The notes under the pieces were generated by a model. The model did not search any database and had not been told where the DNA came from. It was given only the letters and a program-made list of their open reading frames with translations. Shown piece after piece: positions 5 through 8,949 of a stretch of 10,208 bases of DNA; the first letter of the stretch is position 1, and the number at the start of each line of letters is the position of its first letter. Both the position numbers and the translations under genes were made by a program. The stretch comes from a virus, in the UHGV virus genome UHGV-0247914; one strand, written 5' to 3'.

Positions 5-30
5 TCACTCTCCTTTGATGCGAATGCCAG
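5..30. repeat. Copy 1 of a 26-bp direct repeat at the 3' end of a gene (junction module)
   Basis: tcactctcctttgatgcGaatgccag at 5-30 matches 499-524 with one mismatch. On the minus strand it encodes the C-terminal I-x-I-K-G-E, the TGA stop and an AAGGAG that serves as RBS for the next gene. Confidence 0.85.
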
Positions 31-496
31 TGGTACTCATTCTCCTGATTTCCCAGAGCACACGAGGAACACCACCGTTTCCGACCGGATCGCGTTTACT
101 CCGCAGGGCGACGCTTGATTCCGCCCAGCTTTTTCTTGGAGGAAGCTCTTTCACACGAACAAAACCAGCTGCGCGGAGAGATGCTCCTGATTCATCTGCC
201 TGGGTGTACGTAATACAACGTTGATAACCCATAGCCTTTGCTGCCCGCCAGACAGCACCATAAAGCGCGCTGTTAGCGTTGCGTTCTCCTGTGGTACATG
301 TGCGATTTACTTCAAGCGTTAATCCATCGTCCAAATGTCGTGCAACAGGTCTACCGGCTGTCGCCACACCTATCAATTCTCCGGCATCATTTCTCAGACC
401 AATGCTGAATTTATGCCCCACCGGGGGTTTATTGTGTCGGTGATGTCTGGATATAAACGCCTTCGCAACACGAAGAGTAACCGGTGAAATCTGCAC
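5..496 (-). CDS. Hypothetical protein, possibly GNAT-fold acyltransferase-like; C-terminus ...GIRIKGE
   Basis: The ORF track gives 5..517 with a TTG start. An in-frame GTG at 494-496 sits 7 nt after an AAGGAG (complement of 504-509) and is the more likely start. Stop is TGA at 5-7. Central region (…TLEV…SALYGAVWRAAKAMGY…SGASLRAAGF) loosely resembles an acyl-CoA N-acyltransferase core; this is from memory, not a search. Confidence 0.5.
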   Translation of the reverse strand: MQISPVTLRVAKAFISRHHRHNKPPVGHKFSIGLRNDAGELIGVATAGRPVARHLDDGLTLEVNRTCTTGERNANSALYGAVWRAAKAMGYQRCITYTQADESGASLRAAGFVRVKELPPRKSWAESSVALRSKRDPVGNGGVPRVLWEIRRMSTTGIRIKGE

Positions 497-498
497 TC

Positions 499-524
499 TC
501 ACTCTCCTTTGATGCAAATGCCAG
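499..524. repeat. Copy 2 of the 26-bp direct repeat (junction module)
   Basis: tcactctcctttgatgcAaatgccag; 25/26 identical to 5-30. Encodes ...GICIKGE, the stop, and the RBS for the gene at 5..496. Confidence 0.85.
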
Positions 525-1579: not shown

Positions 1580-1594
1580 TTACCCCTGAGGTAA
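1580..1594. promoter_or_regulatory. Operator-like palindrome TTACC-CCTGA-GGTAA
   Basis: Perfect inverted-repeat half-sites TTACC/GGTAA with a 5-bp spacer. Overlaps the RBS region of the gene at 1232..1576. Confidence 0.5.
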
Positions 1595-1635
1595 TTAAAA
1601 ACCACATAAGACACGAAATCAATAGATCTTAGAAC

Positions 1636-1663
1636 ATTTTATTACCTAGCAGGTAATTATCAA
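1636..1663 (-). promoter_or_regulatory. Putative sigma70 promoter for the accessory cassette, with the operator in its spacer
   Basis: Minus strand: -35 TTGATA (complement of 1658-1663), 16-bp spacer, -10 TAAAAT (complement of 1636-1641). The spacer is the palindrome at 1642-1656. Confidence 0.4.
1642..1656. promoter_or_regulatory. Operator-like palindrome TTACC-TAGCA-GGTAA
   Basis: Perfect half-sites; with flanks aTTACCtagcaGGTAAt. Lies between the putative -35 and -10. Confidence 0.5.
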
Positions 1664-1668
1664 GACGT

Positions 1669-1690
1669 AAAAAAATGCGCTATCGCGCTG
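1669..1690 (-). terminator. Weak intrinsic terminator after the P homolog
   Basis: Minus-strand RNA GCGC-GAUA-GCGC (4-bp GC stem) followed by AUUUUUUU, immediately after the TAA stop at 1694-1696. Confidence 0.35.
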
Positions 1691-1693
1691 GTA

Positions 1694-2479
1694 TTACTTG
1701 ATAAATCCTGCCGCCTTTCCCCGCCTGTATTCCTCCATCAGCCACTGCGCCGGTGTTATTCCCCCCAGGGTAGCGGCGTTAGGCATACACCCGAAACTTC
1801 GCCCTGGTGGATGGTAAACGTCTCTCCCTGTGTCCGGAGGCGTACTCATGGGTTCTGGCTTTGCCTGTATGCTGATCACCGGATCGGGTATCTGCTGTCC
1901 GGAAGCCACCTTTTTCGCCCAATCATCGAGCAGCCTGCGCGCGTGTTTCTCAACCTCAATCTCGCTAAGCTGGCGCTGATACATTGCACGGCGGGTATCA
2001 CATACGACCCAGTACATAACCGGATGTCGCCACGGGAATCTTTCGGGACCACCAGGATATAAACTTTTTTCCTTGCTGTACCGGTGAAACTCCGCCATCA
2101 CATCGTCAATGGTGACGCCAAGAACCATCTTGCTGTCTTTACACCACTTGATGAATTGCCCTGGCGACGGCCAGAACGGAGACTCACTGGCGCGGGCGTG
2201 GCGCATACCAGCAGAAACCTGTTCACGGGTTCGGATCCCCCCTTCGGCAAACGCAGCAATCCACTGCTGTTTTGCAGCGACTTCCTGCTCTGGCGTCTTC
2301 AGGTTGGTTACCACTGCCGCCGGAAACAGTTGTTTCAGCTGTTTGAAAAGGGCATCAACAAGCCTCTCTGCTGACATGTTCACCACGTTGTCATTGTTGG
2401 TGTACTGATGCTCATAACCTGACATGCGAGAAAGGGCTTCTCCGTCACGGTTTTGTATCGCGGTAAAAACGTTGTTCAC
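1694..2479 (-). CDS. P: Replication protein P homolog (lambda P-like DnaB helicase loader)
   Basis: Central region QQWIAAFAEGGIRTREQVSAGMRHARASESPFWPSPGQFIKWCKD matches my recollection of lambda P (RRQWVLAFRENGITTMEQVNAGMRVARRQNRPFLPSPGQFVAWCRE). The ORF track starts at ATG 2492-2494, but GTG at 2477-2479 has GGAGGA 6 nt upstream and overlaps the upstream TGA as GTGA, so it is preferred. Confidence 0.85.
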   Translation of the reverse strand: MNNVFTAIQNRDGEALSRMSGYEHQYTNNDNVVNMSAERLVDALFKQLKQLFPAAVVTNLKTPEQEVAAKQQWIAAFAEGGIRTREQVSAGMRHARASESPFWPSPGQFIKWCKDSKMVLGVTIDDVMAEFHRYSKEKSLYPGGPERFPWRHPVMYWVVCDTRRAMYQRQLSEIEVEKHARRLLDDWAKKVASGQQIPDPVISIQAKPEPMSTPPDTGRDVYHPPGRSFGCMPNAATLGGITPAQWLMEEYRRGKAAGFIK

Positions 2480-3267
2480 AAGAAATCCTCCCATGCTTCA
2501 GGGCTGTTCCAGTGCGGAACGTTGTTATCAGGTAATGTTGATTGCTTCTGTCTGCTAATCTGCAGCCGCCTTGCCAGCTTCTGCTCCCACTGTGCCTGAT
2601 GGTATGCCTTACCCTCAGCCATCCAGTAAATTCTGAACTCTGCAAGTTCCTGTGCCGTTGGCAGACTGTCCAGGTAGATCCCCTGCAATGAGCTTTTCCG
2701 AAGAAAGTCATCTGATGGCTGCCATTGTTCATGCATGACAAATTTGCCTAATTGCCCTGGCCCACCAGGAGGAACAAAGTTATTCATCACGGCGTTGTTT
2801 GCGCCGGGGTCATGAGGCACAGAATCCCCGCTTTTTGTCCTGCTCTCCCTCTCTTGGTTAAATGACTGGTTATATGACTGGTTCTGGATCCCGTTTTTGG
2901 GATCATTCAACATCCCGTTTTTGGGTATATTCCCGTTTTCGGGTATATTCCCGTTTTCGGGTTCATTGCCCCACTCCCGGTTGCCTTTAATGTTCCCGTT
3001 TTTGGTTATATTAAGAGAGAAAACCCGCACTCTTTTTGTCGCTCCCTTTCTCTCTCCGGTATCTGAAATAAGCCCCATTTTCATGAGCGATATAAGCCCG
3101 GCCTGCACGGTTTTTTTATTCAGGCAAGTGTCTTTAACGAGGCGTTCTATGCTGGGGTAGCAGAGGTTATATTCATCGGCTCTGTCAGCCATCGAGAGCA
3201 GTATGAGCTTTAATGATGAGCTACCTGGATCTGTCTCCCAGGCCCAATCTGTTGCATGTCTGCTCAT
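2476..3267 (-). CDS. Replication initiator protein (lambda O-like functional analogue)
   Basis: 263-aa ORF with GGAG 8 nt upstream of ATG 3265-3267. N-terminal region looks like a winged-helix/HTH DNA-binding domain. A low-complexity NGNIPENGNIPKNG linker is encoded by DNA iterons. Sits directly upstream of, and coupled to, the P homolog. Confidence 0.75.
   Translation of the reverse strand: MSRHATDWAWETDPGSSSLKLILLSMADRADEYNLCYPSIERLVKDTCLNKKTVQAGLISLMKMGLISDTGERKGATKRVRVFSLNITKNGNIKGNREWGNEPENGNIPENGNIPKNGMLNDPKNGIQNQSYNQSFNQERESRTKSGDSVPHDPGANNAVMNNFVPPGGPGQLGKFVMHEQWQPSDDFLRKSSLQGIYLDSLPTAQELAEFRIYWMAEGKAYHQAQWEQKLARRLQISRQKQSTLPDNNVPHWNSPEAWEDFL
2889..3012. repeat. Iteron array inside the initiator gene (putative replication origin)
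   Basis: Five copies of TCCCGTTTT(T/C)GG(G/T)T at 2889, 2913, 2931, 2949 and 2994, mostly followed by ATAT. Copies 2-4 are spaced exactly 18 bp apart. Flanked by a TGACTGGTT x2 repeat (2863-2884) and a polypurine/polypyrimidine, moderately AT-rich stretch (3013-3060). Confidence 0.7.
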
Positions 3268-3282
3268 GATTAATCTCCGCTA

Positions 3283-3483
3283 TCAGCTTGAGTGTTGTGG
3301 GGAGGAATTAATCATGATCTGCTTAATCTCTGCCCTGATGCGACGGTTTGACTCCATGGTGCACTCAACACAGTGTCCGTTGTAAACCCAGCGTTCACTG
3401 TCATGTCCGTGCTTACATGGTTTTCCGGTGTAGTAGCGTTTAAGTCCGCGCTTTGCGGCATCAATACGTGTAATGATTTCCAT
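3283..3483 (-). CDS. Small Cys/His-rich protein (possible zinc-binding), in the position cII occupies in lambda
   Basis: ORF track gives 3283..3546. The hydrophobic N-terminal extension looks unlikely, so the internal ATG at 3481-3483 (MEIITRIDAAKRG...) is preferred. Contains C-K-H-G-H ... H-C-V-E-C. Stop is 18 bp before the initiator gene start. Confidence 0.45.
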   Translation of the reverse strand: MEIITRIDAAKRGLKRYYTGKPCKHGHDSERWVYNGHCVECTMESNRRIRAEIKQIMINSSPQHSS

Positions 3484-3564
3484 GGTAAGCCCTGTTATTA
3501 GTATTGGGATTACGGTTATTTTGTGCTGACACAAAAAAAAGATCAACCAGATTTGGTTTTTTAT

Positions 3565-3579
3565 TACCTTTGAGGTACG
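3565..3579. promoter_or_regulatory. Operator-like palindrome TTACC-TTTGA-GGTAc (one mismatch)
   Basis: Same TTACC-N5-GGTAA architecture, just downstream in the minus-strand transcription direction of the terminator at 3580-3612. Confidence 0.4.
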
Positions 3580-3612
3580 AATAGATATGAAAAGACCGCC
3601 GGATGGCGGTCT
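3580..3612 (-). terminator. Intrinsic terminator after the cro-like gene (tR1-like position)
   Basis: Minus-strand RNA AGACCGCC-AUCC-GGCGGUCU (8-bp stem) followed by UUUCAUAUCUAUU, 22 nt past the TGA stop of the cro-like gene. Confidence 0.6.
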
Positions 3613-3633
3613 ACAGAGGGTTGTTGCCAGATA

Positions 3634-3864
3634 TCATGAGTAGAAGAAGTATGCCAGTTCCGCTTTTGAGCGCAGCCATTGTCTTGTTTTACAGGCTTTA
3701 AAAAGCCCATTCATCAATACCTTACCTGGCATTTTGCGCTTACCTGTTAAGTGAGTCTGGATATAGTGACTCGTCGTTCCGGCTTCCTGTGCGAAGGCTT
3801 CACGCTCATCCGGAGTAAGTGCAAGCCAGTGCTTTTTGAAATCGAAATGTCCGTTATCGCTCAT
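3634..3864 (-). CDS. Cro-like HTH regulator (YdaS-like), first gene of the minus-strand early operon
   Basis: 76-aa ORF with an HTH-like segment (LTPDEREAFAQEAGTTSHYIQTHLTGKRKMP). Divergent from the repressor across the operator region. Confidence 0.7.
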   Translation of the reverse strand: MSDNGHFDFKKHWLALTPDEREAFAQEAGTTSHYIQTHLTGKRKMPGKVLMNGLFKACKTRQWLRSKAELAYFFYS

Positions 3865-3889
3865 AGCTATTGCCTGATATTTATTTCAG

Positions 3890-3918
3890 ATAATAAATAT
3901 TCACCCATAAGGTAACAA
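3890..3918 (-). promoter_or_regulatory. Putative PR-like promoter for the cro-like operon
   Basis: Minus strand: -35 TTGTTA (complement of 3913-3918), 17-bp spacer, -10 TATTAT (complement of 3890-3895). The palindrome at 3901-3915 lies in the spacer. Confidence 0.4.
3901..3915. promoter_or_regulatory. Operator-like palindrome TcACC-CATAA-GGTAA (one mismatch)
   Basis: First of three sites in the divergent intergenic region, phased like an OR1-OR2-OR3 cluster. Confidence 0.45.
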
Positions 3919-3931
3919 AAATCAAGGATAG

Positions 3932-3946
3932 TTACCTATGGGGTGC
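3932..3946. promoter_or_regulatory. Operator-like palindrome TTACC-TATGG-GGTgc (two mismatches)
   Basis: Middle site of the divergent cluster and the weakest match. Confidence 0.35.
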
Positions 3947-3948
3947 AT

Positions 3949-3963
3949 TTACCTGTTGGGTAA
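3949..3963. promoter_or_regulatory. Operator-like palindrome TTACC-TGTTG-GGTAA (perfect)
   Basis: Site of the cluster nearest the repressor gene. Confidence 0.5.
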
Positions 3964-4018
3964 TATTGCTTTAAATTGAATCATCTACTGATTCATATAT
4001 GAGGCGATTTTCCAGAAA

Positions 4019-4603
4019 ATGAAAAGTATCCAGGACGTCCGCAGGCAAAATCTCAACGACTTGATCGACCGTGAATTCAATGGTGTTCAGACGCGGATGG
4101 CAGAAAAACTTGGAACTCAGGCAAATCTGGTAAACCGCTGGGCTCTTGGCAAGAAGGTTATCGGCGACCAGGTTGCGCGAAAAATTGAAGCTGCCGCCAA
4201 TAAACCCCGTAACTGGCTTGATATCGATCGCTCGCTTTCTCAGGAAGGTTTTCAGCCTGTCGGCCCAAGCGACATTGGTCAGCTGGCAGCTCACAACCTG
4301 GAACGCTGGATGAGTGAAAGCCGCGACCTTTCAACTCAGGGAAAACTTCACCGCGCATCCGGCGTCGCCCAGGTGACAATCAGTCGCCTGTTAAACAATG
4401 AGGTCAGCGTTTCCATTTCCACCCTGGAGAATGTTGCATCCGCATTCGGGCGTCACGGATATGAACTACTGATTCACCCGCACGACCCTGCGACTATCAA
4501 CTATGACCGCTCGCGCTACGCATTGTTACCCGAAACCGAGAAAGCAAAGATCGAAAGTTACATTGAATTTGTCATCAACCAGAACGAAAAAAACAAACAA
4601 TAA
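4019..4603 (+). CDS. Repressor-like regulator with two HTH domains (CI position)
   Basis: 194 aa. HTH 1 is about residues 20-70 (TRMAEKLGTQANLVNRWALGKKVIGDQVARKIE); HTH 2 is about residues 110-150 (HRASGVAQVTISRLLNNEVSVSISTLENVASAFG). No S24 peptidase (LexA-like) motifs were seen. First ATG has no good SD within 5-10 nt. Confidence 0.7.
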   Translation: MKSIQDVRRQNLNDLIDREFNGVQTRMAEKLGTQANLVNRWALGKKVIGDQVARKIEAAANKPRNWLDIDRSLSQEGFQPVGPSDIGQLAAHNLERWMSESRDLSTQGKLHRASGVAQVTISRLLNNEVSVSISTLENVASAFGRHGYELLIHPHDPATINYDRSRYALLPETEKAKIESYIEFVINQNEKNKQ

Positions 4604-4624
4604 AATCATACTCTTCAGTAAGTA

Positions 4625-4650
4625 AGCCGCCTTCTGGCGGCTTTTTTATT
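4625..4650 (+). terminator. Rho-independent terminator after the repressor gene
   Basis: AGCCGCC-TTCT-GGCGGCT (7-bp stem) followed by TTTTTTATT. Confidence 0.8.
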
Positions 4651-4660
4651 GCCTATACTA

Positions 4661-4675
4661 TTACCTAATGGGTAA
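4661..4675. promoter_or_regulatory. Operator-like palindrome TTACC-TAATG-GGTAA (perfect)
   Basis: With flanks aTTACCtaatgGGTAAt; 20 bp upstream of the -35 of the PL-like promoter. Confidence 0.5.
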
Positions 4676-4694
4676 TTTTTTTAACTCATATCTA

Positions 4695-4723
4695 TTGACA
4701 TCAAACCAAATACGCATAATTAT
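4695..4723 (+). promoter_or_regulatory. Putative PL-like promoter for the recombination/integration operon
   Basis: Consensus -35 TTGACA at 4695-4700, 17-bp spacer, -10-like AATTAT at 4718-4723. The palindrome at 4723-4737 abuts the -10 and covers the start region. Confidence 0.5.
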
Positions 4724-4737
4724 TACCTCAACGGTAA
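4723..4737. promoter_or_regulatory. Operator-like palindrome TTACC-TCAAC-GGTAA (perfect)
   Basis: Overlaps the -10/+1 region of the PL-like promoter. Confidence 0.5.
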
Positions 4738-4911: not shown

Positions 4912-5211
4912 ATGAACGTTAATCAGCAGAAAAATCTTCAAAAAATCATGCTGGCATTCGACAAGGACTACCGCCTGTCAGAACAGCTATATGACCGACA
5001 AGTTGAACTGATTGAGAGCATCCGACTTCATCAACTGTCCTCAACTTTCGACGTTGTAACAGGCAAAGGCGTTCGTCAGGAAGTGCTGGAGGCTGCTAAA
5101 GACAGCCCTGAGTTCGAAGAACTGATGGATGCCTACCGGCGCGAGGCAATGGCAATTATAGCGCGCTGGGATCTGGCGGATCAGCTTGATGGACAGAGGG
5201 ACGCGGCATGA
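4912..5211 (+). CDS. Hypothetical protein (99 aa)
   Basis: ATG at 4912 is preceded by GGGAGGG with 6-nt spacing; the track's 4897 start is a less likely upstream ATG. Stop overlaps the next start as ATGA. Confidence 0.55.
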   Translation: MNVNQQKNLQKIMLAFDKDYRLSEQLYDRQVELIESIRLHQLSSTFDVVTGKGVRQEVLEAAKDSPEFEELMDAYRREAMAIIARWDLADQLDGQRDAA

Positions 5212-6029
5212 AACCGGGAATTTATTTCGACATCAGCAACGAAGACTACCACGCCGGTGACGGCGTGAGTAAGTCGCAACTGGACATGGTTGCCAAGAAT
5301 CCGGCGCTTCTTAAATGGGTTCAGGCAGCACCAGAAGACGAAGAGAAAAAGTCTGCACTGGATATGGGAACCGCATTGCACTGTCTGCTTCTGGAGCCTG
5401 GAGAATTCGACAAACGCTTCATTGTTTCACCGAAGTTCGATCGTCGGACGAAACAAGGTAAAGCTGACGAAGAAGCATTTCTTCGTGATGTAGCGGATAT
5501 GGGGATTACGGTACTTGATGCCGAGCAGTGGCGGAAACTGGAGCTGATGCGTGATAGCGCAATGGCTCACCCGGCGGCACGCTGGATGCTGGAAGCACCT
5601 GGTTACTGCGAAGCATCAATGTACTGGAACGATGAAGAGACGGGTGAGTTGTGCCGAATTCGTCCAGACAAATGGCTGAACGAGCACAACGTGATCGTCG
5701 ACGTGAAAAAGGTTGCAGATATGGACCGTTTTGCACGTCACATCGAGGAATTCCGCTACCACGTGCAGGACGCAATGTACCGCGAAGGCGCAATGAGGGT
5801 TACTGGTCAGCCGCATGGTTTTTTCTTTCTTGCCGTGAGCGAAAGCATTGATTGTGGTCGGTATCCGGTACGCGTGTTCGGGCTGGATGCGCCGGATGTC
5901 GATGCCGGGCACGCTCTGTTCCGCCGGGATCTGAATACCTATCACGAATGCCGCATCAGCGATGAATGGGGCGGCGTGGAAATTATTAAACGCCCTGAGT
6001 GGGCACGCAAACAGGATATGTACGTATGA
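5208..6029 (+). CDS. PD-(D/E)xK exonuclease (RecE-like, partner of the annealing protein)
   Basis: 273 aa with RPDKW...VIVDVKKVADMD, a PD...D-x-K nuclease core. GAGGGA RBS. ATGA overlaps at both ends (5208-5211 and 6026-6029). Confidence 0.7.
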   Translation: MKPGIYFDISNEDYHAGDGVSKSQLDMVAKNPALLKWVQAAPEDEEKKSALDMGTALHCLLLEPGEFDKRFIVSPKFDRRTKQGKADEEAFLRDVADMGITVLDAEQWRKLELMRDSAMAHPAARWMLEAPGYCEASMYWNDEETGELCRIRPDKWLNEHNVIVDVKKVADMDRFARHIEEFRYHVQDAMYREGAMRVTGQPHGFFFLAVSESIDCGRYPVRVFGLDAPDVDAGHALFRRDLNTYHECRISDEWGGVEIIKRPEWARKQDMYV

Positions 6030-6943
6030 GCAACGAAATTGCAATCACCAATGATGTGTTGGCTATTCGGGGAATCGATGAAGTTACATGGAGCGCTCTG
6101 AAAAACAGTATTTACCCTGGGGCAAAAGATGAATCGGTAATGATGGCAGTCGATTACTGCCGGGCGCGTCAACTCGATCCTCTTCTTAAGCCGGTACACC
6201 TGGTACCAATGAGTGTTAAAGACTCGAAGAGTGGAAAGAATGAATGGCGCGACGTGGTCATGCCTGGCATTGGACTTTATCGCATTCAGGCCTACCGTTC
6301 CGGCGATTACGCAGGCGCTAATGAACCTGAGTTCGGTCCAGATGTAACACAAACGCTTTCAGGCGTGGAGGTTACCTTCCCTCAGTGGTGTAAGTACACC
6401 GTCAGCAAGCGAATGGCAAGCGGGGAAATCGTAGAGTTTAGCGCCAAAGAATACTGGATTGAGAACTATGCAACTGGGGGGCGTGACACATCGGCACCAA
6501 ATGCCATGTGGAAAAAGCGCCCTTATGCGCAGTTGGCAAAATGCGCAGAGGCACAGGCATTACGTAAAGCATGGCCGGAGATTGGTCAACAAGCCACAGC
6601 TGAGGAAATGGAAGGTAAATATATCGACTCACCTGACATTATTGAACGTGACGTAACTCCAAGAAGTCAGGCAAAGCACGGCACAGCATCCAGCATGAAC
6701 AGTCTGATCAACGCTAAACCAGTGAAAAAGCATGATGAGCAAACGCGTAAAGCGGATAGCCGTGATCCAGAAGAAATGCTGATGGCCTTTACCAGCGCAG
6801 CGATGAATTACAGCACTGTCTCCGAACTGGATAAGGCTTACAAATACATTGCACAAAAACTTTCAGATGATGACGAACTGCTGGCAAAAGCCACCGACGT
6901 TTACAGCGTTCGTCGGGAAGAATTAAACGAAACATCTATGTAA
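6026..6943 (+). CDS. RecT/Bet-family single-strand annealing protein
   Basis: Track ORF starts at 5999; ATG 6026 overlaps the upstream stop as ATGA. PGIGLYRIQAYRSGDYAG and MWKKRPYAQLAKCAEAQALRKAWPE resemble conserved RecT/Bet segments as I recall them. Confidence 0.75.
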   Translation: MSNEIAITNDVLAIRGIDEVTWSALKNSIYPGAKDESVMMAVDYCRARQLDPLLKPVHLVPMSVKDSKSGKNEWRDVVMPGIGLYRIQAYRSGDYAGANEPEFGPDVTQTLSGVEVTFPQWCKYTVSKRMASGEIVEFSAKEYWIENYATGGRDTSAPNAMWKKRPYAQLAKCAEAQALRKAWPEIGQQATAEEMEGKYIDSPDIIERDVTPRSQAKHGTASSMNSLINAKPVKKHDEQTRKADSRDPEEMLMAFTSAAMNYSTVSELDKAYKYIAQKLSDDDELLAKATDVYSVRREELNETSM

Positions 6944-6951
6944 CCACCACC

Positions 6952-6970
6952 GCGGCGCCACACGCGCCGC
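6952..6970 (+). other. GC-rich stem-loop between the recT-like and AlpA-like genes
   Basis: GCGGCGC-cacac-GCGCCGC, a perfect 7-bp stem with no following U tract, 22 nt before the next start codon. Confidence 0.4.
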
Positions 6971-6992
6971 ACTGCAACCAAGAGAGGTATTT

Positions 6993-7241
6993 ATGAAAGG
7001 TGCATTAGATAAGAAGAAACTCCTGGCGGTGGTGCCACTGTCATGGAGCACTATCGACCGTATGGAGCGCGCAGGTGAATTTCCTAAACGCTGGTATATC
7101 ACTGACAAACGCTGCGCATGGAACCGTGACGAAGTTGAGCGTTGGCTTGATGAACGTCAGGCAGCAAGCCCGGCAGAGTTCCAGGGTAAAAAGCCTCCTG
7201 TTCAGCAACGTGTATATCGTCCTGTGAGAAACGCTGCATGA
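6993..7241 (+). CDS. AlpA-family phage regulator / excisionase-like HTH protein
   Basis: 82 aa with AGAGAGG RBS. Pattern LSWSTIDRMERAGEFPKRWYITDKRCAWNRDEVERWL fits the AlpA family signature (S-x-ST ... G-x-FP ... R-x-x-W ... EV-x-x-W). Confidence 0.75.
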   Translation: MKGALDKKKLLAVVPLSWSTIDRMERAGEFPKRWYITDKRCAWNRDEVERWLDERQAASPAEFQGKKPPVQQRVYRPVRNAA

Positions 7242-7350
7242 GTGTGCTGCTAAGGCACTGGAGCAAATGGTCAGGATGGTACTTATTCCTGGCCTCTGTT
7301 TCAGCATGGCTTTATCTGCTGGCATTAATTTTCAGAGAGGGTTGGATTAA

Positions 7351-7650
7351 GTGAGAAAGTTAAGCCGACTTGAAAAATATCACATGAACAAGGTTTCAAT
7401 GCGCCGTCCTTCAAAGGTTATCGCCGTTACTCCTGCGGCGATAGAGATCGAAAAACGCGCGATTGAAAGAGAGAAAAAAGGGCAGTTCCGCATTGCCGCT
7501 CACCTTTGGCTTCAGTGTATGGATGTTGCTTCTGGTGATGTTGAACGTGCAAGGATCGCGGTTCGCAGGGACCAATGTATCACAAAAGGTAACGGCCTTC
7601 GCCGTGGCGACTATAGCGGCATAGGATGTTGTGGGGTGGTTTATGACTAA
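7351..7650 (+). CDS. Small regulator-like protein, tentatively PerC/ANR-like
   Basis: GTG start at 7351 with AGAGGG 9 nt upstream; an alternative ATG is at 7384. GQFRIAAHLWLQCMDVASGDVERARIAVRRDQC resembles the helical hairpin of PerC/ANR-type proteins, from memory only. Confidence 0.45.
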   Translation: MRKLSRLEKYHMNKVSMRRPSKVIAVTPAAIEIEKRAIEREKKGQFRIAAHLWLQCMDVASGDVERARIAVRRDQCITKGNGLRRGDYSGIGCCGVVYD

Positions 7651-8293
7651 GAAATACACACTAATCTATGCAGATCCACCCTGGGTATACCGGGACAAAG
7701 CCGCAGATGGTAATCGCGGTGCCGGTTTTAAATATCCGGTTATGAGTGTGCTGGATATCTGCCGCCTTCCTGTGTGGGATTTGGCCGATGAAAACTGTCT
7801 GTTGGCCATGTGGTGGGTGCCAACACAACCACTCGAAGCACTAAAAGTTGTTGAAGCCTGGGGATTCCGTCTGATGACGATGAAGGGCTTCACGTGGATA
7901 AAATGTGGTAGTCGACAACCAGATAAACTGGTTATGGGTATGGTACACATGACTCGCGCCAATAGTGAAGATTGCCTGTTTGCGGTAAAGGGAAAACTAC
8001 CTACGCGCATTAATGCAGGGATCGTTCAGTCATTTACCGCACCGCGGCTTGAGCATTCAAGAAAGCCAGATATCGTTCGTGAAAAACTTGTGCAATTATT
8101 AGGCGATGTTTCTCGCATTGAACTGTTCGCCCGCCAGACGTCTCATGGCTTCGATGTTTGGGGTAATCAGTGCGAAGACCCGGCAGTGCAACTACACCCT
8201 GGATACGCGTTGGATATCGGCGGATTAACAAATGCATTCAGCAATGCTCCGCTGTCACCAACAGACAACCAGGGGCGGGAGCGTGCAGCATGA
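7643..8293 (+). CDS. MT-A70-family N6-adenine methyltransferase
   Basis: DPPW motif in [14 protein letters not shown] near the N-terminus. Preferred start is ATG 7643 (GGGGTGG upstream); the track's GTG 7631 adds four residues. Stop overlaps the phosphatase start as ATGA. Confidence 0.8.
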
Positions 8294-8949
8294 ACCTATA
8301 TCAACGCATCAATGGCGCTGACTGGTGCAATATCTTCGTCGTCGGCGATCTGCATGGGTGCTACACGCTGCTGATGAACGAACTCGACAAAGTTTCATTC
8401 GACCCGGCGCGCGATTTGCTTATTTCCGTTGGTGACCTTGTTGACCGCGGCGCTGAAAACGTCGAATGCCTGGATTTGATTACTATGCCGTGGTTCCGAG
8501 CTGTTCGTGGCAACCATGAGCAGATGATGCTGGATGCACTGGTCAACGGCGGAAGTTTCGGACATTGGATGTCAAACGGCGGTGGATGGTGGCACCAACT
8601 TGATTCTGAGCAGGATGTGCAACTCAAATACCTTCTGCCAAAGGTTACCAACCTCCCGATGATTATCGAACTGGTTACCGGCAATAAGAAGGTCGTCATC
8701 TGCCACGCAGACTACCCGCACAACGAATACGCATTCGATAAGCCAGTACCGGAAGAAATGGTGATATGGAATCGTGAGCGGGTTAGCGACGCGCAGGACG
8801 GTATTGTCTCGGAGATAACCGGTGCCGATTTGTTCATCTTCGGTCATACGCCAGCACATCACCCACTGGTGTATGCAAACCAAATGTACATCGACACCGG
8901 CGCAGTGTTCTGCGGAAATCTGACGCTTACCAAAGTCCAGGAAGGATAG
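8290..8949 (+). CDS. Ser/Thr protein phosphatase, lambda phosphatase (PPP family) homolog
   Basis: GDLHGC, GDLVDRG and GNHE metallophosphoesterase motifs. Near-colinear with lambda phosphatase as I recall it, with 18 residues before GDLHGC in both. The track's 8170 start is an in-frame upstream extension. RBS GGGAG. Confidence 0.9.

Follow-up and report, generated by a model that had tools for sequence, protein, structure and literature searches.

The viral DNA stretch UHGV-0247914 (10,208 nt; as a whole referred to as the window) carries two divergently oriented regulatory genes together with eight copies of the 15-bp palindrome TTACC-N5-GGTAA, which, judged by position, conservation and homology, are very probably the operators of the lysogeny repressor Rep. 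The rep gene (4019-4603, plus strand) is followed by a terminator and two small open reading frames (ORFs), and across the intergenic gap upstream of it lies the cro-like gene (3634..3864, minus strand), the first gene of the rightward early unit, which encodes a small helix-turn-helix (HTH) protein of 76 aa (phrog_35, E 5.6e-13). With 97-98% identity to Escherichia phage phiV10 and to the phiV10 relatives BP9, PAS61, phiv142-3 and ZX5, the window is the early region of a temperate phage of the phiV10/epsilon15 type (genus Uetakevirus, epsilon15-like podophages).

An exact search with the pattern TTACCNNNNNGGTAA, i.e. TTACC-N5-GGTAA, retrieved five perfect copies in the window, starting at 1580, 1642, 3949, 4661 and 4723, whereas 0.01 are expected from shuffled sequence. 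Scanning by mismatch class (0, at most one, and two) added two one-mismatch copies at 3564 (TTACCTTTGAGGTAC) and 3901 (TCACCCATAAGGTAA), giving seven sites with at most one mismatch compared to 0.14 expected from the shuffles, and a two-mismatch copy at 3932 (TTACCTATGGGGTGC), which completes the set of eight. An earlier interpretation of the same letters, made without database searches (the sequence-only reading), had already claimed eight copies, and the search returned the same number; seven of its start positions are correct, while the site it placed at 3565 actually starts at 3564. It had also described all copies as intergenic and coding DNA as containing isolated half-sites only, and this agrees with our data: the intergenic DNA, which in our gene model amounts to 813 nt or 8% of the window, entirely holds all eight sites, and coding DNA contains 14 TTACC and 15 GGTAA half-sites and not a single paired N5 site with at most one mismatch. 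As host background we used a 150-kb sample of E. coli K-12, in which one perfect site and eight sites with at most one mismatch were found (0.067 and 0.53 per 10 kb). The corresponding densities in the window are 4.9 and 6.9 per 10 kb, i.e. 73- and 13-fold higher, so that both classes are strongly enriched in comparison to shuffled sequence, to coding DNA and to the K-12 sample, the density comparison on which the sequence-only reading had staked its claim. The two-mismatch class is close to background, with 6.3 per 10 kb in K-12 and six such matches in the coding DNA of the window. Counts alone are therefore insufficient for the site at 3932, which is credible only because epsilon15, SPN1S and BUCT711 have a perfect site at the homologous position.

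Three of the sites are located, as predicted from the letters alone, between the divergent repressor and cro-like genes, and their starts are spaced 31 and 17 bp apart. The one-mismatch operator at 3901..3915 lies between the -35 and -10 elements of the putative cro-like gene promoter, a PR-like element (3896..3925, minus strand) with an invariant -35 TTGATT (3925-3920) and an A/T-rich -10 at about 3902-3896, the exact position of which is uncertain; AAAAATCAA is invariant in the alignment of this gap (A1). Next to the degenerate operator at 3932..3946 follows, 17 bp further on, the perfect operator TTACCTGTTGGGTAA (3949..3963), which likely overlaps the -35 and the spacer of a candidate rep promoter (TTACCT, 17 nt, TAAATT at 3972-3977).

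A second group of operators is found past the intrinsic terminator of rep (4624..4651, plus strand; predicted here and annotated in phiV10). Here, two perfect copies, TTACCTAATGGGTAA (4661..4675, followed by a T-run) and TTACCTCAACGGTAA (4723..4737), are positioned 62 bp apart and bracket a PL-like promoter (4695..4723, plus strand) consisting of the -35 TTGACA (4695-4700), a 17-nt spacer and the -10 AATTAT (4718-4723). The upstream operator ends 19 bp before the -35, and the downstream one shares its first base with the end of the -10 and extends over the expected transcription start. The idea of two sites flanking a consensus TTGACA behind the repressor terminator thus holds, and both CTATTGAC and ATTAT are invariant in the PL alignment (A2). 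Transcription from this promoter would drive the small ORFs and the exonuclease, RecT, AlpA, PerC, methylase and phosphatase genes.

The remaining sites are associated with promoter-like elements on the minus strand. The one-mismatch operator at 3564..3578 lies just past the predicted intrinsic terminator of the cro-like gene (3593..3612, minus strand; also annotated in phiV10) and 17 bp upstream of the -35 of a putative promoter for the Zn-ribbon/replication unit (3518..3546, minus strand; -35 TTGATC at 3546-3541, 17-nt spacer, -10 CAAAAT at 3523-3518). In all six phages aligned, this operator has an invariant GGTAA half and a degenerate second half; TTGATCTTTTTT and AAAAT are invariant in the corresponding alignment A4, and downstream of the promoter there is only a degenerate half-site, TAACCGTAATCCCAA, at 3518-3504. 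Further along, the lambda-P-like gene is followed by a weak terminator-like hairpin (GCGC-GATA-GCGC plus a run of seven T; 1669..1688, minus strand), whose columns are invariant in alignment A3 and which is listed as a putative terminator in phiV10; it may insulate the replication unit from the next promoter. This promoter-like element of the DUF1064/nin-like unit (1594..1622, minus strand; -35 TTGATT at 1622-1617, 17-nt spacer, -10 TTTAAT at 1599-1594) is again bracketed by two perfect operators, TTACCTAGCAGGTAA (1642..1656), 19 bp upstream of the -35, and TTACCCCTGAGGTAA (1580..1594), whose first base is the last one of the -10 and which stops 3 nt short of the ATG at 1576. The two are 62 bp apart and repeat the geometry of PL (operator, 19 bp, -35, 17 nt, -10, operator), with CTATTGA and the -10 region invariant in A3. 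On this pair the sequence-only reading has to be corrected, as it had placed the sites in front of an accessory cassette, whereas they precede the minus-strand DUF1064/resolvase-like gene and come after the replication genes. A tool-predicted promoter in the same region, TTGATA-16-TAAAAT (1663-1636), was not adopted as the main one, as its -35 is not conserved in the relatives.

Each of the early units ends in a terminator with an operator-bearing promoter immediately next to it (terminators at 3593-3612 and 1669-1688 on the minus strand, and at 4624-4651 on the plus strand). This layout suggests a terminator-insulated arrangement with multiple promoters and not a cascade of antitermination. 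A homologue of N did not show up in the annotation of the window, although no search aimed at N was made.

To put the sites into an evolutionary context, the homologous regions of Tyrion, BUCT554, BUCT711, epsilon15 and SPN1S were scanned, and the alignments A1-A4 take in six phages. All five relatives have a pair of sites, 62 bp apart, in front of the first gene behind the replication module, a single site past the cro terminator and, within the rep/cro gap, two or three sites. An operator pair past the rep terminator is likewise present in each of them, spaced 62 bp apart, or 63 bp in BUCT711. In total, 11 of 12 operator pairs have a spacing of 62 bp and the remaining one has 63 bp, and operators are thus found at syntenic positions in six phages, namely in the rep/cro gap, past the rep and cro terminators and after the replication genes. 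The invariant columns of A1-A4 comprise the half-sites TTACC/GGTAA, the -35 elements (CTATTGAC, TTGATT, TTGATC) and the -10 regions, while the central N5 varies freely. Since the half-sites are invariant and the central positions are variable, a protein that recognises the half-sites is indicated, and not RNA pairing or general conservation. This bears directly on the notion that the palindromes function at the RNA level, as hairpins for attenuation or processing, or that they simply arise from the A/T-richness of promoter DNA. The sites are indeed inverted repeats, and some of them would be transcribed. However, folding predictions give weak hairpins, at -1.1 to -5.0 kcal/mol, several sites are situated ahead of the predicted promoters and hence would remain untranscribed, and across the phages the sequence of the half-sites is kept rather than their pairing by compensatory changes. 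The hairpin reading is effectively refuted by these energies, and base composition does not explain the sites either, as dinucleotide shuffles of the A/T-rich intergenic segments alone give 0.0005 perfect sites and 0.03 sites with at most one mismatch. Taken as a whole, we regard this explanation as extremely improbable.

Within the operators, an A at position 6, the first base inside TTACC, occurs in 1 of 42 pooled sites of the phiV10 clade and in 25 of 46 of the epsilon15 clade. With one genome per clade the comparison shrinks to 3/28 versus 11/28 (p = 0.03), which is weak; a clade-specific preference at this inner position may be hinted at, but is therefore not claimed.

The motif has a precedent in the RefSeq record of epsilon15 (NC_004775.2), which lists eight protein_bind features termed 'repressor; lysogeny' with the sequence ATTACC-N5-GGTAAT. 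Three of these are situated past the rep terminator and one before the gene following the replication genes, corresponding to the positions of 4661/4723 and of 1642, respectively; the site at 4661 is homologous to 32616-32632 and the one at 4723 to 32554-32570. The record leaves the three sites of the rep/cro gap and the second member of the post-replication pair without annotation, and both are present in the sequence. Neither the record of phiV10 nor that of SPC32H contains operator features, and operators are not defined in the ZX5 paper either.

The sites also extend beyond the early region. The complete phiV10 genome contains 14 copies with at most one mismatch, of which 12 are intergenic according to the annotation and two are located at the extreme 5' end of the annotated terS; as this pair lies inside the start of an annotated coding sequence (CDS), the start codon may be mis-set. 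Outside the early region, the phiV10 sites (87, 105, 3252, 20497, 20877, 24692, 26870) are placed at the terS start (a pair 18 bp apart), ahead of gp3 and of int, to either side of ant and within the oac/lysis gap, and epsilon15 has sites at corresponding positions (12, 30, 2932, 19896, 24704, 26882). These locations suggest direct control of late, lysis and integration promoters by Rep, and since the sites of both phages match in position across the genomes, Rep probably represses promoters throughout the whole genome.

The protein that we propose to read these sites has 194 aa and is a full-length homologue of Rep from Salmonella phage SPC32H (phmmer against the PDB: 5D50_A, E 4e-42). Residues 1-190 align to residues 2-197 of 5D50_A with 42% identity, spanning all three domains, and 5D4Z matches residues 89-190. 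SPC32H Rep is described as contacting DNA through its N-terminal domain, dimerising through the middle one and using the C-terminal domain both to form tetramers and to bind Ant, and it is reported to bind palindromic DNA as a tetramer, in which the paired DNA-binding domains come from different dimers (PMC9638917; PMC9986798). Using the domain names and definitions of PMC9986798, the window protein would likewise have three parts, with the HTH DNA-binding domain at the N-terminus, an HTH_3-like domain for dimerisation in the middle and a C-terminal domain for tetramerisation and Ant-binding; an S24 domain is absent. This is in line with the Pfam matches to HTH_3 (residues 106-147) and, weakly, to a YdaS-type HTH (residues 21-61), and with the missing match to Peptidase_S24 in Rep, whereas the cI of Pseudomonas phage PseuP_224, serving as a control, gives E 2.6e-22. 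Rep is identical in phiV10 and ZX5 (100%), and identity falls to 78% in Tyrion, 76% in BUCT554, 44% in BUCT711, 43% in epsilon15 and 42% in SPN1S. The N-terminal domain is the best conserved one, with 54% identity to epsilon15 compared to 34-45% for the other two domains, and its stretch NLVNRW (residues 36-41), a candidate part of the recognition helix, is invariant even among Reps that are only 42% identical. In ZX5, the protein identical to Rep, encoded at the same position, is annotated as 'repressor' in the record and named ORF21 in the paper; upon its overexpression, transcripts of the lysis genes dropped by more than 99.9% and free phage disappeared (PMC9782041).

The assignment of the sites to Rep has to be weighed against the second HTH protein of the region. 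The palindromes might chiefly be operators of the cro-like protein, with Rep reading another sequence, or, in a milder version, both proteins might share them as CI and Cro do in lambda. The cro-like protein has an invariant HTH-like stretch (GTTSHYIQTHLT), is 76% identical across the clades and matches a transcriptional-repressor family (phrog_35), and the intergenic DNA of the window contains no second recurring palindrome or other operator type that could serve as a separate Cro site. Because the cro-like protein is conserved too, we turned to relatives that share only part of the system. Phages with a related N-terminal domain were found by tblastn against the phage collection, and a scan of IMG/VR with the Rep alignment returned only loci with 100% identity. 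In the cI of PseuP_224, a Rep-type N-terminal domain (39% identity, E 1e-12) is fused to a Peptidase_S24 domain, and the gene is flanked by TTACC-N4-GGTAA, with three perfect copies in 4.2 kb (1922, 1961, 2823); the divergent cro-like ORF of this phage has no detectable similarity to the cro-like protein of the window. Related palindromes are also present near the repressor genes of Psychrobacter pOW20-A (ATACC-N5-GGTAT at 1179, 1230, 2086 and 2112) and Hafnia yong2 (GTACC-N5-GGTAC at 1268), both judged by eye from the raw sequence; the statistical test was confined to PseuP_224. Hence, the TACC-type half-site travels with the Rep-type N-terminal domain, and PseuP_224 retains it in spite of an unrelated cro-like ORF. 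This favours Rep as the reader, although the cro-like protein may share the sites. Besides, the late, ant and int promoters of phiV10 and epsilon15 carry sites too, as would be expected for a maintenance repressor, and the epsilon15 curators attribute the sites to the repressor. For these reasons, a role of the palindromes mainly as Cro sites appears improbable to us.

Several further putative regulators are encoded in the window, so that an AlpA-like, PerC-like or gp49-like protein (the latter encoded outside the window) or a host factor might be considered as the reader of the sites. Yet their positions, in the rep/cro gap, past the rep terminator and over the -10 and transcription starts, are typical for a maintenance repressor, and the distant phages with related palindromes beside their repressor genes share only the Rep-type N-terminal domain. 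With a host factor, moreover, the sites should be about as dense in the host genome as in the window, and in the K-12 sample they are not. We therefore consider another regulator very improbable. The proposal of the sequence-only reading that the palindromes form the operator set of an immunity repressor, in contrast, gains from three sides, as Rep is a full-length homologue of SPC32H Rep, the motif is annotated in epsilon15 and the sites keep their positions over promoters in six phages.

Several points nevertheless weigh against this assignment to Rep. All promoters were assigned from consensus and conservation, and binding of Rep at these exact sites is deduced from its homology. The window does not include ant, the cro-like protein is itself highly conserved and could bind the same sites, and the 'repressor' features of epsilon15 may be bioinformatic predictions. 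In addition, the constant 62 bp could partly reflect that each operator is independently anchored to a promoter element.

If Rep is the reader, a pair of its N-terminal HTH domains, with the recognition helix containing NLVNRW, would contact the two TTACC half-sites, which are one helical turn apart, and in the lysogen Rep on its operators would block RNA polymerase. The downstream operator of each 62-bp pair abuts the -10 and covers the start, and the upstream operator is placed 19 bp before the -35. At the putative promoter of the cro-like gene, the operator at 3901 takes up the spacer and the -10, and those at 3932 and 3949 are found upstream of it, over the likely rep promoter. Since each early unit appears to be closed by a terminator and equipped with its own Rep-controlled promoter, N-type antitermination would not be needed. 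As the SPC32H Rep tetramer has two pairs of DNA-binding domains, one Rep tetramer may hold both operators of a 62-bp pair. This leads to a tentative model of a 'promoter clamp', which we regard as possible but doubtful: one tetramer with two trans-paired dimers of DNA-binding domains would bind the two operators and enclose the whole promoter in a tight micro-loop. Geometrically, 62 bp would correspond to about six helical turns, with the operators centred near -61.5 and +1. The clamp module would be repeated at separate terminator-insulated early promoters. In phiV10 and epsilon15, single operators or pairs 18 bp apart are also present at promoters of the terminase, of gp3, of ant/tail-fibre and of the lysis region, so that one repressor might directly silence the entire genome, independently of antitermination.

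Induction would follow the relatives, in which Rep is not cleaved and the small LexA-controlled antirepressor Ant binds Rep and takes it off the DNA. For SPC32H, Kim & Ryu (2013, J Virol) and Kim et al. (2016, PNAS) reportedly describe a Rep that stays uncleaved in the SOS response and is inactivated by Ant, the product of a LexA-repressed gene. PhiV10 encodes an Ant homologue, PhiV10p24 (20543-20800; match to 5D50_E, E 3e-46, 88% identity by our own count of 72 of 82 aligned residues). A LexA box, CTGTATAAATACACAG (20822-20837), is located just upstream of ant, operators flank the region at 20497-20511 and 20877-20891, and epsilon15 has a LexA box at the corresponding position. Ant is about 88% identical although the Reps are only 42% identical, so that a well conserved Ant would have to fit a strongly diverged Rep. 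Phages of E. coli, Salmonella, Klebsiella and Enterobacter share the operator core even where identity between their Reps is only 42%, and therefore immunity specificity, if there is any, would have to reside in the inner spacer or in the Rep-Ant pairing.

In comparison to known systems, the closest likeness is to the Rep-Ant switch of SPC32H, which has a full-length homologous repressor with the same three-part architecture and no S24 cleavage domain; in SPN1S, a close relative classified with SPC32H as one species, the TTACC-N5-GGTAA palindromes recur at the positions seen here. The window differs from SPC32H in its E. coli host and in a diverged Rep, which was compared by sequence only. With epsilon15 it shares the identical core ATTACC-N5-GGTAAT, the homologous positions and the same 62-bp spacing, whereas the central spacers of epsilon15 are more A/T-rich, and the phiV10 clade has two OL operators in contrast to three in epsilon15 and SPN1S. 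Like lambda, 434 and P22, the window has divergent repressor and cro-like genes with three operators in between that overlap the proposed promoters, a second operator set at the leftward early promoter past the repressor terminator, and palindromic half-sites one helical turn apart. In contrast to these lambdoids, the motif is different, the repressor is without a RecA-dependent autocleavage domain, OL consists of two operators 62 bp apart around the promoter instead of three adjacent ones, and there are extra promoters, presumably repressor-controlled, past internal terminators. The lambda analogy is thus valid for the layout, except that the OL operators flank the promoter, and it fails for induction, because the repressor would be controlled by an antirepressor and not be RecA-cleavable. 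The S24-type cIs of PseuP_224, pOW20-A and yong2 have a homologous N-terminal HTH (about 36-40% identity) and related palindromes beside the gene; they differ in the spacing or the outer base of the half-sites and, in PseuP_224, by a C-terminal module for LexA-like autocleavage. From these sequence comparisons, it appears that a module of DNA-binding domain and half-site has been shuffled between induction modules that are either Ant-binding or RecA-cleavable.

The genes around the operators follow the order of an early region. Leftward, the cro-like gene and its terminator are followed by a Zn-ribbon ORF (3283-3486), a DnaT/O-like initiator gene with iterons (2476-3267), the lambda-P-like gene (1694-2494) with its weak terminator, and the DUF1064/Holliday-junction-resolvase-like gene (1232-1576), all on the minus strand. 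Inside the DnaT/HTH_36 initiator gene, five iterons of about 18 bp (TCCCGTTTTTGGGTAT-like) are located at 2888-3013 with start-to-start distances of 24, 18, 18 and 45 bp, a cluster that, by analogy, looks like a lambda-O-style origin embedded in the initiator gene. At the left end, a 170-aa ORF (5-517, minus strand) has a sub-threshold Pfam match to Mom (E 9.3e-5; 22.6 bits, cut-off 27.1), and its product may be a DNA-modification protein. This end of the window appears not to be common to phiV10, as megablast coverage begins at position 498. Rightward, on the plus strand, follow a PD-(D/E)XK exonuclease (5208-6029), RecT (6026-6943), an AlpA-like gene (6993-7241), a PerC-like gene (7351-7650), an MT-A70 methylase gene and a calcineurin-like metallophosphatase (8290-8949; Pfam Metallophos, E 1.2e-15), and an integrase gene on the minus strand occupies the right end. 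Exonuclease and RecT are separate, overlapping ORFs in the window, Tyrion and BUCT554, whereas the phiV10 record annotates a single RecE-RecT fusion CDS (6063-7823). The metallophosphatase gene, flanked by the methylase and integrase genes, takes the place of a small DUF1382 gene of phiV10 and appears to be a swapped accessory gene.

The operator core is already annotated for epsilon15 and the repressor family is already structurally characterised by SPC32H Rep, so that the operator map leaves the general understanding of phage immunity unchanged and describes an ordinary, well explained feature. Its contribution is to supply a map of operators and promoters for the phiV10 lineage, whose records, as far as checked, annotate no operators. 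This lineage includes phages infecting E. coli O157:H7, and its immunity region is present at an identity of at least 95% in 541 of 5426 complete E. coli genomes (~10%). For the 'trans' binding model of the SPC32H tetramer, the map offers natural paired operators.

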